This document shows, piece by piece, positions 9,470 through 24,117 of a stretch of DNA of 64,000 bases. The DNA comes from a virus (taxonomy: Duplodnaviria; Caudoviricetes): the IMG/VR virus record IMGVR_UViG_3300025389_001172, positions 32,001-96,000 of that record; one strand, 5' to 3'. The notes beneath the pieces were generated by a model. It was not told the origin of the DNA. It ran no database searches and saw nothing but the letters and a program-made list of their open reading frames with translations. The position numbers and the translations under genes are program-made. Within the stretch, counting starts at the first letter, position 1; each line of letters opens with the position of its first letter.

Positions 9470-10009
9470 TTAGAGTCTCTGATTGATCACGTCCCAATCG
9501 ATGATTTTCCATTGATTATTTAGATATGCTTCCTTGTCCCACTTGTAGTCTAGGGACCAACTATGTTCCCACCAGTCTATCAGTAGTATGATGTCGTTCT
9601 TGATCTCGTGGTTTTTGATGGTTTTGATCTCACCGTTCTTGGCCAGATAAGCCCATCCTGATCCCTGTATTTTCATAGCAGTCTCTTTGAACCGGTCCTT
9701 GAACTGGTCAAAAGATTTCCAGTGCTCTTCGATGAACTCCTTAGATTTCCCCACAGGTTGATTTGAACCTTTGGGTGGTCTGAATTGTGTGAAATAGATA
9801 TCGTGTAAGAAAGCACCTGCTTCATTGAAATCTGGATCACCTTCACGCTTGTTGTAACGATCTACATAGGCCTTGTAGAGATGACCATAGTGATAATCTA
9901 TAGCGGCCTTGCTAAGGCTACGGCCCAATGCATCACGGGCATAAGGTAATGGAGTTTGGACTAGGTCTTTGGCCTTACCTTCGTTTAGGTATCTGATAAA
10001 ATTATACAT
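9470..10009 (-). CDS. Fe/Mn superoxide dismutase
   Basis: LPY, YHYGHLYKAYV, H ligand in FLHDIYF, GSGWAYL, DWWEHSW (DxWEHxY-like), WKIIDW. Confidence 0.9.
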   Translation of the reverse strand: MYNFIRYLNEGKAKDLVQTPLPYARDALGRSLSKAAIDYHYGHLYKAYVDRYNKREGDPDFNEAGAFLHDIYFTQFRPPKGSNQPVGKSKEFIEEHWKSFDQFKDRFKETAMKIQGSGWAYLAKNGEIKTIKNHEIKNDIILLIDWWEHSWSLDYKWDKEAYLNNQWKIIDWDVINQRL

Positions 10010-10020
10010 ATAAATATTCC

Positions 10021-10120
10021 GTCAAGTGGTTAACGGGGCATCCGAGGACCCCTAGCTATGAACTTTCCCTGTTTTTGCGTAGCACAGCCAATGTGGCTCA
10101 AAGGTAAATCGGCGCTTGAC
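10021..10120 (+). ncRNA. Candidate structured ncRNA (multi-stem) downstream of a TATAAATA late promoter
   Basis: Closing stem GTCAAGTG/CGCTTGAC; internal stems GGGG..CCCC, GCTATG/CGTAGC, AGCCA/TGGCT; G-U pairs favour the + strand. Confidence 0.5.
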
Positions 10121-10194
10121 ACTGAATTCAGTTTAATCATACTGTTATTTATTCATGGTTAAATAAACGTACATAAAATGAAAGGAATCCTATC

Positions 10195-10494
10195 ATGGAA
10201 ATCATTATCGCTATTGCTATAGTAATTGGTGCTGTTGCTGTGTATTTCAACCGTAAGCCAAAGACTGTAGAAGTTACAACAGAAGTACCTTACAAGGTAG
10301 AAACACCTACAGTTGAAGAAGCTCCTGTTGTTACTACAGAGACTGTCGAAGCTGTTATCGCTGGAGTACCAGCTGCCAAGAAGCCACGTAAACCACGTGC
10401 TCCAAAAGCAGAAGCTACTGCTAAGAAACCAGCCGCAAAAAAAGCCCCAGCAAAAGCCAGGGCTACTAAAACAGTAAAATCAAAGAAAGCCTAA
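10195..10494 (+). CDS. Membrane-anchored protein with Lys/Ala/Pro-rich (histone H1-like) tail
   Basis: N-terminal hydrophobic helix; C-terminal KKPAAKKAPAK repeats. Confidence 0.7.
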   Translation: MEIIIAIAIVIGAVAVYFNRKPKTVEVTTEVPYKVETPTVEEAPVVTTETVEAVIAGVPAAKKPRKPRAPKAEATAKKPAAKKAPAKARATKTVKSKKA

Positions 10495-11508
10495 TTTCTG
10501 CGCTTGCCTAGCTAGTTCAAAACTGGCTAGGTTTTTTCCCTTACTCTCACACATTATATCGAATTGATCTAGAAACCCTAGGGCCCACGTGTTCACCGCT
10601 GTGTTCCACATAAAGTCAGAGTGGGCACGAAGTTTTTGCTTTTTATATCCCTGTTCGAGTAAGAGATTATAATCAGGGGAAATGTCTTGTGGATGATCGA
10701 CGAGATAGTCTTCCCTTGATTGGCTAAAATGACATACAGGGCGAATTCCACGCCAGCTATCTAGCAGTCTGGGGATGCGTGGGTCAGTGGGCTGGATGTA
10801 TTCGCCTTCGCGAATAAAGTAATGATGGACATCTAAAACCGTTGGTATGATGTCACTGAGACTGAGGCAGTCGTCAAGACCCCAAGAGTTTTCTTCGTTT
10901 TCAATTGTAATACAGTTGCGGGCTTCGGGTGAGAGGCGACTGTAGGCACTTCTGATACCCGCTGGACCGGCTCTACCCGCGATGTGGACATTAATTTTAA
11001 GGTCCTGGAATTTCTTACCATAGCCCATGAATCGTGCCATATCAGCATGATATTCAAACTCCTCTAATGATCTGTCGACGATGTCTGGGTTATCACTAGC
11101 CAGTACAGTAAACTGACCAGGATGAAAACTAAGACGTACATTGTGTTCACGAGCAATTTCGCCCACCCGGGCAAATCCTTGACCGAGGTATTGATCCACA
11201 TCAGGCCGAAGCCAAAAATAACTCCAAGACCGCTCAGTATAGACAGGAAGGATATCACTCCCAAGGCGGACCATGCGAAGGTGTTCATCTAGTGTACTGA
11301 CCCTTTCAACCAGCTTACGTACCGATTCTATGTTCTGTACCATTAGGTCCCAGAGCCGTTGTTCAGCTACGTCTTTGCTCTGTCTATTTAGCCAGGCCAC
11401 TGTAGTGGCGCCGGTGTTGTATTGTTTGGCATCATCAGTGGATTTGATGCCATCGACCTGGTGAGGATGGTCAATCCACTTACAGGCCCAGCCTATACGT
11501 TTGATCAT
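10480..11508 (-). CDS. uvsE: UV-damage endonuclease (UvsE/UVDE)
   Basis: RIGWAC, RLGSDILP, RLSFHPGQF, INVH, IENEE, LDVHH, HFSQS, RAHSDF, DIMCESKGK. Confidence 0.92.
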   Translation of the reverse strand: MIKRIGWACKWIDHPHQVDGIKSTDDAKQYNTGATTVAWLNRQSKDVAEQRLWDLMVQNIESVRKLVERVSTLDEHLRMVRLGSDILPVYTERSWSYFWLRPDVDQYLGQGFARVGEIAREHNVRLSFHPGQFTVLASDNPDIVDRSLEEFEYHADMARFMGYGKKFQDLKINVHIAGRAGPAGIRSAYSRLSPEARNCITIENEENSWGLDDCLSLSDIIPTVLDVHHYFIREGEYIQPTDPRIPRLLDSWRGIRPVCHFSQSREDYLVDHPQDISPDYNLLLEQGYKKQKLRAHSDFMWNTAVNTWALGFLDQFDIMCESKGKNLASFELARQAQKLGFL

Positions 11509-11707
11509 TATGACCTTTTATTAAATGATAGGTTGAGAAAAATTAATACTAAATCTATTGCTAGACCTCCCCAGTTTCCTATGGAAAAATCATGTAGTGC
11601 AGACAGACTTAACCAACCGATCAAGAACCAAGTGATCTCAGTATGATAGGTACGATACCACGTTCTAAACTTATCCATATAGACCTTTCTGTTGTAATAC
11701 TACTATT

Positions 11708-12646
11708 TTACACGATATTTCGGAAATAGTCAATGGTTTTTACCAACCCTTCTTCTAAAGGAATAGTCGGAGTCCAGCCCAATTTGCTGTTAGCTTTGGT
11801 GATGTCTGGACGTCTTTGTTTCGGATCATCTAACGGTAAGGGTTGCTGTACGATCTGGCTGGTACTGCCTGTGAGTTCTATGACCTTTTGGGCTAATTCC
11901 ATCATGGTAAACTCGCCAGGATTGCCCAGATTGATAGGACCAGGCACGCTGACATCAGGATCTAATGCCATATAACGCATCATACCATCTATGAGATCGT
12001 CGACGTAACAGAATGAGCGAGTCTGCTGTCCACTGCCATACATGGTGATATTCTCGCCACGCAGGGCCTGTACGATGAAGTTACTGACCACACGTCCATC
12101 ATTCTTGTTCATTCTAGGACCATAGGTGTTGAATATGCGAACGATACGCACATCTACATCGTGTACACGCCAGTAGTCCATGAACAGAGTTTCAGCGGCA
12201 CGCTTGCCCTCATCATAGCATGAACGGATGCCTATGGGATTAACATTGCCCCAGTATTCTTCTGGCTGTGGATGCACAGTAGGATCACCATAGCATTCAC
12301 TGGTACTTGCCTGCAGGATTCGAGCACCTGTTCGTTTGGCCAAGCCTAGTAGGTTATATGATCCCAACACTGAGGTCTTCATGGTCTGTATCGGATCCCA
12401 TTGATAAAAGAACGGGCTAGCTGGGCAAGCCAAGTTGTAGATCTCGTCTACTTCTACATATAATGGAAAGCAGACATCCTGTCGCATAACTTCGAAGTTC
12501 TTGTGATCTAATAGATGAGCTATATTGGCCTTGCTACCTGTGAAATAGTTATCCACGCAGAGCACGTGATGACCTTGTTCTACCAATCGATCACATAGGT
12601 GACTGCCTAAAAAACCAGCACCACCTGTTACTAATATTTTTTTCAT
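11708..12646 (-). CDS. UDP-glucuronate decarboxylase (UXS-like) NAD-dependent SDR
   Basis: [57 protein letters not shown]. Confidence 0.92.
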
Positions 12647-12786
12647 TGTTTATCCTTTTTGTGCTCAATACCATACTGTTGGAACAGCCAATCTATAAAA
12701 TTCGATACCTGTATCTGACTGCCAAACTTTCGTTCATAGACTTCAAAAGCCCGTTCTACTCGATCTAACCATTCTTTGTCACCCAT
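12643..12786 (-). CDS. Small hypothetical protein (MGDKEWL...)
   Basis: ATG immediately after the full-length queD stop. Confidence 0.5.
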
Positions 12787-12788
12787 AT

Positions 12789-13238
12789 CTATCCCTCGTA
12801 AATCGCTGAATTGGCACCATGCTCGGCGCACTCTACTCTAACACACCAGCAACGTCCGTTGCTGGTGTGTTAGAGTAGAGTGCGCGCATAATTGAACGCA
12901 TGGTAGGCAAACTTCTCAGCACCTACACCAGCAAATATTCTAATCTCTGCTAGATCTAATGCTTCCAATTCCTGGAATTTAGATAGGTAAGGGTCATGTT
13001 GATCCAAACACAGTTTGTGATCAAACCTATCTTCCAACCAGGCTTTGAGCTTTTTAAGTCCGCCAAAGTCTACTGCCCAATTCTTGTCATCCAGTGAGTC
13101 ACATCCAAATGTGAATGTAAATGCTAGACTGTAACCATGTAGCAGGTGACAGTGACTGTGATCCGCATTGGGCTGTCGGAATACCGCTGACAGGCCAATA
13201 TTGTGCCCGTAATGCTTTGTTGAATAATATTTTGCCAT
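12789..13238 (-). CDS. queD: 6-carboxy-tetrahydropterin synthase QueD, interrupted by an in-frame TAA at 12870-12872
   Basis: CHLLHGY, VDFGGLK, FDHKL, AEKFA; the in-frame continuation after TAA (GRCWCVRVECAEHGANSAIYEG) carries the C-terminal Glu motif. Confidence 0.85.
12826..12885. repeat. Perfect inverted repeat, 29-bp arms with a 2-nt loop
   Basis: GCGCACTCTACTCTAACACACCAGCAACG-TC-CGTTGCTGGTGTGTTAGAGTAGAGTGCGC. Confidence 0.97.
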
Positions 13239-13263
13239 TACATTCTCCTATAAGATTAGCAAT

Positions 13264-13303
13264 GGCGGCAGAGTTTATGAATCGGGATGACGCCTAGACC
13301 GAT
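13264..13303 (-). promoter_or_regulatory. preQ1-I-like riboswitch candidate (H-type pseudoknot) in the queD leader
   Basis: AUCGG-UCUAGGCGUCAUC-CCGAU-UCAUAAACUCUGC-CGCC: 5-bp P1, A-containing tail, loop GGCG pairs with CGCC. Confidence 0.6.
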
Positions 13304-13309
13304 ATATAG

Positions 13310-13338
13310 ATTATACACGCAGATATAATCTCTGTCAA
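13310..13338 (-). promoter_or_regulatory. Sigma70-type promoter for queD
   Basis: TTGACA-N17-TATAAT. Confidence 0.7.
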
Positions 13339-13352
13339 TATTTATTGGTAGT

Positions 13353-13556
13353 TTATTTCAGTTCTTTGATTTCAGATTTGATCTGTGTGATATCTGTCTT
13401 GATATCTTGGATCATTTGTATCTGTATATTCTTCATACTAGATAAGTGATTGTATGTCAGCGCAAATAATATCCAGCCTGCGGATCCACCGACAATCAGT
13501 AGTAGAATTAAAAAAATGTAGTCTTGTTGTGCCATAATGTATTCTCCCATAATCAC
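13353..13556 (-). CDS. Small membrane protein with coiled-coil tail
   Basis: One hydrophobic helix followed by a heptad-like C-terminus. Confidence 0.55.
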   Translation of the reverse strand: MIMGEYIMAQQDYIFLILLLIVGGSAGWILFALTYNHLSSMKNIQIQMIQDIKTDITQIKSEIKELK

Positions 13557-13596
13557 TTTTATTTAATCAGTCTTATGGGAGACTTTTGTCGGTAGT

Positions 13597-14190
13597 TTAT
13601 CTGCTCTCGACGATCTTATCGCATAGCCCATAGGCCAATGCCTGTTCAGCCGTCATGAATGTGTCTCGATCCATATCTCGTTCGAAATCTTCGTAGGTCT
13701 TGCCTGCGGTATTGTGTTTGACATAGAGACGGGTCAACATATCTTTCATGTGCATGATTTCTTTATAACTGATCTCTATGTCCGATGCCATACCACTGGC
13801 ACCACCTGAGGGCTGATGTATCATATGACGAGCGTAGGGCAACATGAAACGCTTGCCTGGATGTCCAGCCTGTGCTAGGAATGAGCCCATACTACAGGCC
13901 TGTCCTATGACATAGGTGCAGACATTGGGTTTGATAAATTGCATTACGTCATATATTCCCATACCAGCTGTGATAACACCACCTGGGCTATTGATATAAA
14001 AGTGTATGTCTTTGTCACTGTCTGCTGATTCTAAGTGTAGCATCTGTGCTATGACCAAGCTGGCCGATCCATCATGGACGGCACCGTTGAGGAAGACTAT
14101 GCGATCGTTTAATAATCGACTGAAGATGTCAAAGGCACGCTCACCCTGGCCTGTCTTCTCCACTACCATTGGTACTAAATCTGAATACAT
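13597..14190 (-). CDS. clpP: ATP-dependent Clp protease proteolytic subunit
   Basis: [23 protein letters not shown] catalytic Ser, MIHQP, DRDTFM. Confidence 0.96.
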
Positions 14191-23358: not shown

Positions 23359-24117
23359 TTATCTCGGAGCAAATTCCTGTTGCAGTTTGATATTGTCAAA
23401 GAACTCTTTCTTGGTAGCAGGATCGGTCAAGAACGCACCTTTGAGCACCGTGGTCTGCGTCAATGAACTGTGTGCCATGATTCCTCTATTTTCACAACAT
23501 CCGTGAGTGGCTTGGATGTAGACTCCGACGTTTTCTGAATCTGTTGCTTTTGCAATCTCTCTAGCAATATCGTTGCATAACTCTTCCTGTAAAGTTCCGC
23601 GGCGAGCGCACCACTGAGCAATCCTAGTATATTTGCTAAGTCCAATGAGTTTATTTGCGGCGATGATGCCAATATATGCAACGCCAGCCACAGGTTGGTG
23701 ATGATGACTACACATACTACGCAATTCACTACGTACAACCAACATACCTTCATATCTATCCTCCGAATCATTGGGAAACGCTGTTGCGTCAGGAGCAGGA
23801 TCATATCTACCTGCCATGATTTCGTTGTAATACATTTTAGCTAATCGTCGAGCTGTGCCCTTTGAATTTGGATCGTTCTCTCTATCAATAAGTAGTGCAT
23901 CTAGCACACCTTCAAATGCCACAGTGGCCTGATCAATTAGTTGAGACTTAACTGCATCGTTGTTGACGTACTCGCTGATGTTGTCTCCTGCCCAAAATCT
24001 CTTACCATCTCTCTTCATAGAGTTCCTTAAGACCAGTGCTAGGTTAGGAGCATTTGGATTCTCCCACTCTACTGTTTCGCCTTCTTTGAAATCTTTGTAT
24101 GCTTTATCGTATCCCAT
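23359..24117 (-). CDS. folE: GTP cyclohydrolase I
   Basis: TARRLAKMY, SMCSHHHQP, GLSKYTRI, LQEEL, HGCCENRGI. Confidence 0.95.
   Translation of the reverse strand: MGYDKAYKDFKEGETVEWENPNAPNLALVLRNSMKRDGKRFWAGDNISEYVNNDAVKSQLIDQATVAFEGVLDALLIDRENDPNSKGTARRLAKMYYNEIMAGRYDPAPDATAFPNDSEDRYEGMLVVRSELRSMCSHHHQPVAGVAYIGIIAANKLIGLSKYTRIAQWCARRGTLQEELCNDIAREIAKATDSENVGVYIQATHGCCENRGIMAHSSLTQTTVLKGAFLTDPATKKEFFDNIKLQQEFAPR

Follow-up and report, generated by a model that had tools for sequence, protein, structure and literature searches.

A preQ1-I-shaped pseudoknot at the 5' end of phage queD-like mRNAs: a candidate translational riboswitch

Class I preQ1 riboswitches (RF00522) of types I to III, as in B. 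subtilis queC, T. tengcongensis, C. antarcticum and E. coli, are small H-type pseudoknots at the 5' end of mRNAs of the 7-deazaguanine/queuosine pathway. Their helix P2 includes Shine-Dalgarno (SD) bases, and the specificity cytosine is preceded by U in type I and by A in types II and III (PMC11625349). The B. subtilis preQ1-I sequence (PMC10639078) can be divided into AGAGG UU CUAG CUACAC CCUCU AUAAAAAA CUAA. Guanidine-III, SAM-II, SAM-V, preQ1-II and NAD+-II riboswitches are further examples in which one compact pseudoknot forms the whole aptamer and controls translation; guanidine-III is of the ON type. Among phages, the pseudoknot at the 5' end of the T4 gene 32 mRNA is the operator for autoregulation by the gene product.

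A window of 64,000 nucleotides from a 141-kb record of a giant lake phage (IMG/VR) was analysed. On its minus strand, at 13303-13264, the first-pass annotation had described a stem AUCGG/CCGAU with loop, tail and a CGCC segment able to pair with GGCG of the loop. All these elements were found at this site (Table 1). From 13303 the RNA reads AUCGG UCUA GGCG U CA UC CCGAU UCAUAAACUC UG C CGCC, followed by AUUGCUAAUCUUAUAGGAGAAUGUA and AUG. The pairing of GGCG with CGCC stood, but P2 goes further than was described, past a mismatch to the pairs C13289-G13269 and A13288-U13270. Family-wide, P2 consists of four to seven variable pairs, the U/C mismatch, a C-G and an A-U pair (7-10 positions), and leaders with a longer P2 have a longer L1. 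The mismatch has U in 140 and C in 140 of 141 sequences, with covarying pairs on both flanks; it may be a site of ligand or tertiary contacts. In all, the invariant bases without a partner number about a dozen. Those that are invariant or nearly so include the C and U of L1, both mismatch bases (U and C), the L2 cytosine next to the P1 3' strand, and three A, one U and one C in L3. In 127 leaders the base before the invariant C of L2 is U (88), C (18) or A (9), or two bases are found (12); G never occurs. L3 has 10 nt in 125 of these 127 leaders.

Table 1. Features of the leader, the regulated gene and its surroundings (positions in the window)
Feature	Sequence	Position	Strand	Remark
Promoter, sigma-70 type	TTGACA, 17-nt spacer, TATAAT	13310-13338 (TTGACA 13338-13333; TATAAT 13315-13310)	-	12/12 consensus positions
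P1, 5' strand	AUCGG	13299-13303	-	pairs with 13285-13281; 97-99% of cells paired
Loop	UCUAGGCGUCAUC	13298-13286	-	between the two P1 strands
L1	UCUA	13295-13298	-	C13297 and U13296 invariant family-wide (alignments A1, A2, A4, A5)
P2, 5' strand, variable part	GGCG	13291-13294	-	partner 13267-13264; columns of highest mutual information
Mismatch, 5' side	U	13290	-	opposite C13268; near-invariant mismatch within P2
P2, 5' strand, conserved part	CA	13288-13289	-	C13289-G13269 and A13288-U13270
L2	UC	13286-13287	-	C13286 invariant
P1, 3' strand	CCGAU	13281-13285	-	covariation in 61 and 141 leaders
Tail	UCAUAAAC	3' of P1	-	read from the sequence
L3	UCAUAAACUC	13271-13280	-	10 nt, A-rich, invariant U-C at the end
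P2, 3' strand, conserved part	UG	13269-13270	-	natural-variant scans of IMG/VR
Mismatch, 3' side	C	13268	-	faces U13290; conserved P2 mismatch
P2, 3' strand, variable part	CGCC	13264-13267	-	last three bases common to the anti-start helix
Alternative helix, 5' strand	GCCAUUGC	13259-13266	-	MFE fold; overlaps P2 at 13266-13264 (GCC)
Shine-Dalgarno	AGGAG	13245-13249	-	read off the sequence; 6 nt ahead of AUG, within the loop that the alternative helix closes
Alternative helix, 3' strand	GUAAUGGC	13234-13241	-	contains AUG 13238-13236
QueD/PTPS-like ORF, regulated gene		12870-13238	-	Pfam PF01242, 2.8e-11
ClpP protease		13597-14190	-	same-strand run with the queD unit
NAD-dependent epimerase/dehydratase		11708-12646	-	same-strand run with the queD unit
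UvdE UV endonuclease		10480-11508	-	same-strand run with the queD unit
Fe/Mn superoxide dismutase		9470-10009	-	same-strand run with the queD unit

In layout the phage motif is close to preQ1-I. Both are small H-type pseudoknots at the 5' end of an mRNA of the 7-deazaguanine/queuosine pathway, with a 5-bp P1 topped by G-C pairs, a pyrimidine L1, an A-rich L3 and an invariant C as the last base before the P1 3' strand, mostly with U or A ahead of it. By analogy, C13286 would sit like C17, the specificity cytosine of the B. subtilis aptamer (PMC11625349). Furthermore, UCUAG is common to the phage loop and the B. subtilis loop UUCUAGCUACAC. In contrast to preQ1-I, L1 of the phage motif carries an invariant CU, and its L3, which in preQ1-I is an A-rich stretch of 6-8 nt, is 10 nt long and closes with an invariant UC. 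P2 comprises 7-10 positions with two conserved pairs and the invariant U/C mismatch, whereas it has 3-4 bp in preQ1-I. The 3' strand of P2 contains SD bases in preQ1-I (OFF), but is complementary to the ribosome-binding site (RBS) in the phage motif (ON predicted). Unlike preQ1-I, the motif is almost confined to uncultured phages.

The pseudoknot is real and is under strong purifying and compensatory selection. In an alignment of 61 distinct leaders (A1) 91.8% of the pair cells held standard pairs, compared with 32-49% after the 3' partners were slid by one to three columns. For 141 distinct leaders (A4) the values were 87.9% and 36-51%. Changes on both sides were found at 11 of 14 pairs in A1, and the observed covariation was reached by none of 500 shuffles of this alignment. 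For P1 alone both-sided changes were found at four of five pairs in A1 and at three of five in A4. Because the leader sequences are phylogenetically related, all counts of this kind overstate the number of independent events. Variants of P1 are AUCGG/CCGAU, AGCGG/CCGCU, ACCGG/CCGGU, AGAGG/CCUCU, AGUGG/CCACU and UGCGG/CCGCA, and those of P2 are GGCG/CGCC, GAUG/CAUC, GGUG/CACC, GGCAU/AUGCC, GACGC/GUGUC and AUGACAU/AUGUCAU. Covariation among phage queD leaders, which the first-pass annotation had proposed as a check, was thus obtained for both helices in 61 and 141 leaders. Two positions of L3 (A4 columns 37 and 39) also covary with the middle P1 pair 5-31 (mutual information 0.84-0.99 bits). Such a link would arise if L3 lies in the minor groove of P1. 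It suggests minor-groove base triples, but could also come from shared ancestry.

The conserved pairs of P2 were probed by pattern scans for natural variants across all of IMG/VR. The wild-type core pattern gave at least 120 matches, and all 80 that were fetched have a P1 of 4-5 bp and a PTPS gene downstream. The compensated exchange of A-U by G-C (UCG...CCGC) also gave at least 120 matches, 74 of 80 fetched being genuine. Both uncompensated forms stayed at chance level: A x C was matched 11 times (0-1 genuine) and G.U six times (none genuine). For the conserved C-G pair, 10-11 of 19 matches to the compensated U-A form were genuine, compared with none of 11 for the uncompensated C x A and none of 14 for a flipped G-C. 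Leaders with G-C in place of A-U at the junction-proximal P2 pair form a large second subfamily (L255-L334). Ahead of its P1 3' strand mostly AC instead of UC is found, the invariant C of L2 thus being preceded mostly by A, and a true anti-SD (ACACUCC...GGAGU) overlaps P2. In a small third variant (L408-L421) the conserved C-G pair is replaced by U-A.

A covariance model (R2) was built from 70 leaders, excluding this window and its relatives with an AUCGG stem. With filters off and on both strands of the 64-kb window it gave a single match, at 13259-13305 (-), with 30.5 bits and an E-value of 3e-4.

Regarding gene association, six phage records (the present one and five related records of 243-367 kb) each carry a single copy of the motif, always preceding a PTPS gene. 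More than 596 relatives of the QueD-like protein were found in IMG/VR, and among the best 78 loci with readable upstream sequence the motif is in the same place at 73. Matches to the motif pattern, in which the gene was not used, had a PTPS homologue of 30-89% identity downstream in 80 of 80 fetched cases; a PTPS/QueD-like gene followed in 76 of 80 fetched matches to the G-C form. The motif is therefore conserved upstream of queD homologues; a lack of such conservation had been named in the first-pass annotation as counting against its reading. No other context was seen among the 160 pattern matches listed, which were searched for other regulated genes. The neighbours of the motif-queD loci are varied and include UvdE, a DAHP-synthase-like gene, a phosphoribosyltransferase, an epimerase and Vut_1. 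At three IMG/VR loci (within L093-L172) a gene of the Vut_1/YhhQ family lies downstream of the motif-queD unit. Members of this family transport preQ0/preQ1, and in bacteria their genes are often controlled by preQ1 riboswitches.

Outside of uncultured phages the motif is nearly absent. In 185,579 cellular genomes, one per bacterial or archaeal species, 37 pattern matches were found; by the pairing test about 30 failed and are chance matches, and about seven are genuine. Genuine copies are found in a Haliscomenobacter MAG (L219, 183-kb contig), in the Rickettsiales MAG MED657 (L226/L241), in a Nitrospira MAG (L244) and in L229 and L247. All of the genuine copies lie on MAG contigs, which are probably prophages or phage DNA that was binned with bacterial genomes. 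Blastn of locus and motif against 50,697 cultured phage records gave no real match. Five cultured phages (Pan1, BUCT-ZZ01, Motura, Phosso and IME-SM1) encode the same QueD subfamily, and no motif was found in their QueD leaders with the covariance model R1. From this near-absence in cellular genomes and cultured phages, the element is essentially specific to uncultured, mainly aquatic phages. No description of the motif was found in the full-text literature, which did not include subscription journals, and prior publication is possible.

The start codon of the regulated ORF is the AUG at 13238-13236. Its product is a 6-carboxytetrahydropterin synthase-like protein of the PTPS/QueD family. With the QueD equivalog model (NCBI) it scored 35 bits, far below the cut-off of 89, it has CxxxHGY where QueD has CxxxHGH, and it is 44-53% identical to the QueD proteins of 148-149 aa from 7-deazaguanine phage clusters (Iggy, phiST, phiSM, BUCT-ZZ01). 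A sequence search of the PDB with the protein gave no match. The ORF has 122 aa here, compared with 149 aa in relatives of 82-89% identity; 72 of 80 relatives have this length. A perfect inverted repeat of 29 nt with a 2-nt spacer (12826-12854/12857-12885) was observed within the gene. It creates an in-frame TAA (12872-12870) at codon 123, beyond which the frame runs on to the normal C-terminus (...CVRVECAEHGANSAIYEG). The interruption could reflect a template switch (perhaps a recent one), decay to a pseudogene or an error of assembly. Hence, this copy of the leader, which is itself intact, may regulate a broken gene. The queD unit is part of a series of auxiliary genes that share its strand (9470-14190; Table 1).

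A gene for FolE (GTP cyclohydrolase I, 252 aa) was found in the same window at 23362-24117 (-). Among 240 motif loci a QueE-like radical-SAM gene is nearby in 57 and FolE in about 60. Four relatives with a completeness of 96-100% (G001-G004; loci L088-L091 and L392-L395) all have FolE, the QueD-like gene and a divergent QueE-like radical-SAM gene. QueC (PF06508) and TGT/DpdA (PF01702) were not found in these four, nor was a clear homologue of phiST gp042, which we guess to be DpdA3. Thus, CDG seems to be where the pathway ends. Phages described by Cui et al. 2023 (PMC10516641) have FolE, QueD and QueE but lack QueC, and put CDG-derived bases into DNA via divergent DpdA enzymes. The jumbo phages described here may do likewise, or may supply CDG to queuosine synthesis in the host.

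P1 begins 7 nt past the -10 hexamer of a promoter that agrees with the consensus at all 12 positions, so that the transcript should start within 1-2 bases of 13303. This places the predicted start at the first base of P1, in line with the first-pass annotation. No terminator-like site was found 3' of the motif. In about half of 200 distinct upstream regions a promoter-like element lies just ahead of P1. A sigma-70-like TTGACA/TATAAT pair was seen in about a quarter of these regions (loci L001-L334), and a T4-late-like TAAATA box 3-14 nt ahead of P1 in another quarter. Hence, promoters that differ in timing class drive this one RNA element.

In the MFE fold of the leader, GCCAUUGC and GUAAUGGC form 8 bp which bury the start codon. 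At least five unrelated platform sequences were found in the family, and in each of them the 3' strand of P2 can pair with the SD or the AUG. Thus, CCUAUG/CAUAGG buries part of the SD and UGCCAU/AUGGCA the start codon. The G-C subfamily has true anti-SD sequences inside or overlapping this strand, with the pairings ACUCC/GGAGU and UCUCUUU/AAAGGAGA. The variants CGCC, CAUC, GUGUC and ACACU of this strand are complementary to the SD or AUG region. UGC together with the 3' part of P2 showed greater complementarity to the RBS window than to shuffled RBS windows (mean duplex z -1.77). In MFE folds of 190 distinct leaders at least 3 nt of the strand pair with the window from the SD to AUG+5 in 89%, compared with 62% after shuffling of the strand, a modest margin, and in some platform classes the overlap of platform and P2 is just 2-3 nt.

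Taken as a whole, the motif is a phage-specific cis-regulatory pseudoknot of roughly 40 nt at the 5' end of the mRNA and most likely the aptamer of a translational riboswitch (probability about 0.6). Without ligand, the P2 3' strand would pair with the SD or start-codon region and the start would stay sequestered. A small ligand with a guanine-like face, such as a pterin, 7-deazapurine or purine of the pathway from GTP to CDG, would stabilise the pseudoknot, and the RBS thereby freed would allow translation of queD. Since formation of P2 and sequestration of the RBS compete, a ligand stabilising the pseudoknot should turn translation on, and the pairings predicted from nested-fold thermodynamics somewhat favour an ON switch. 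The feedback control proposed in the first-pass annotation is not supported: by predicted pairing the 3' strand of P2 can also act against the SD or the start codon, which points to a ligand-stabilised ON state instead of repression. An ON switch would be unusual on a biosynthetic gene if the ligand is the end product of the pathway, which counts against this reading. The invariant C, placed like the preQ1-I specificity base, would fit any 2-amino-4-oxo face (pterins, 7-deazapurines, guanine) and so does not single out one ligand.

It is unlikely, by comparison, that the pseudoknot works without a ligand, as a protein operator, as protection of the 5' end from RNases, as a folding timer or thermosensor, or as a standby element for the ribosome. 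Its place right at the transcript's 5' end would suit such roles, and phages use 5' pseudoknots as protein operators, as in T4 gene 32. In both systems an H-type pseudoknot opens the leader of a phage mRNA and controls translation, the latter being a prediction for the present motif. The conserved loop bases could form purely stabilising triples, in keeping with the covariation of L3 and P1. However, the exclusive tie to one enzyme family, with PTPS proteins down to about 30% identity in many neighbourhoods and behind many types of promoter, is typical of metabolite sensing. The pocket-like invariant mismatch within a covarying helix and the invariant cytosine of L2 point the same way, and such pocket-like invariant unpaired bases distinguish the RNA from that of T4 gene 32. 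The gene 32 protein binds single-stranded nucleic acids and nucleates at its pseudoknot, whereas the gene regulated here encodes a T-fold pterin enzyme. In this PTPS/T-fold product no RNA-binding domain was found, and enzymes of its type are not known to bind RNA.

A little less probable still is a very divergent member of preQ1-I, which would bind preQ1 or preQ0 and repress queD as end-product feedback. The layout (H-type pseudoknot, 5-bp P1 with two G-C pairs, the C, A-rich L3), the shared UCUAG and a regulated gene within the 7-deazaguanine pathway fit this explanation. Against it stand the 10-nt L3 with invariant UC, the P2 of 7-10 positions with its invariant mismatch, and a pyrimidine-rich P2 3' strand which is complementary to the RBS instead of containing it and so predicts ON, not OFF. 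The search with the preQ1-I model, also proposed in the first-pass annotation, was negative: RF00522 gave no match at E<=10 on the 221-nt leader region 13180-13400. On five phage genomes (G000-G004) RF00522 had no match at the leader, and its best score elsewhere was 16.5 bits (gathering score 39), the control genomes being detected. With Rfam 15 at the gathering threshold, tRNAs alone were found in the whole window and in 16 diverse motif loci; at E<=10 the leader gave just chance-level matches to unrelated families. Membership in preQ1-I was rejected, as the threshold of 39 bits was not reached, no terminator is present and the P2 3' strand is not an SD. What remains of the term preQ1-I-like is the similar layout, an H-type pseudoknot with 5-bp P1 and covarying P2; the motif is thus preQ1-I-like in shape, but not a member of this family.

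For the guanidine-III, SAM-II, SAM-V, preQ1-II and NAD+-II riboswitches the likeness ends with the compact pseudoknot and translational control. Their conserved nucleotides and gene associations are unrelated to those of the phage motif, and their Rfam families had no match in the window, the leader or the 16 loci. A chance stem-loop without function is refuted by the comparative data and hardly worth considering, given hundreds of homologous instances with compensatory changes and a leave-out model that finds one site; the nested MFE of the leader, which is no better than shuffles (z = +0.79), is uninformative here because nested folding cannot model a pseudoknot.

The chances are about even that the motif is a new, phage-confined riboswitch class in which a pseudoknot of preQ1-I shape was rewired to ON, senses a pterin, 7-deazapurine or purine intermediate (H2NTP/neopterin, folate, guanine or CDG) and gates the branch point of FolE, QueD and QueE. 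At this point QueD would divert dihydroneopterin triphosphate, made by the phage FolE, into the synthesis of 7-deazaguanines, QueC and DpdA not being detected. If ligand binding is true, this would be a riboswitch class which is essentially virus-only. Its natural variants number in the hundreds, its minimal aptamer has about 40 nt, and its logic would be opposite to that of its closest structural relative. It would offer a case study of one small fold re-tuned for a new ligand or output, and synthetic biology could use it as a small ON-switch part. FolE, QueD and QueE occur in many large phages of freshwater and the sea that have neither QueC nor a detectable transglycosylase. The ligand of the switch would indicate which metabolite is monitored by the phage and so help to tell what these enzymes make.
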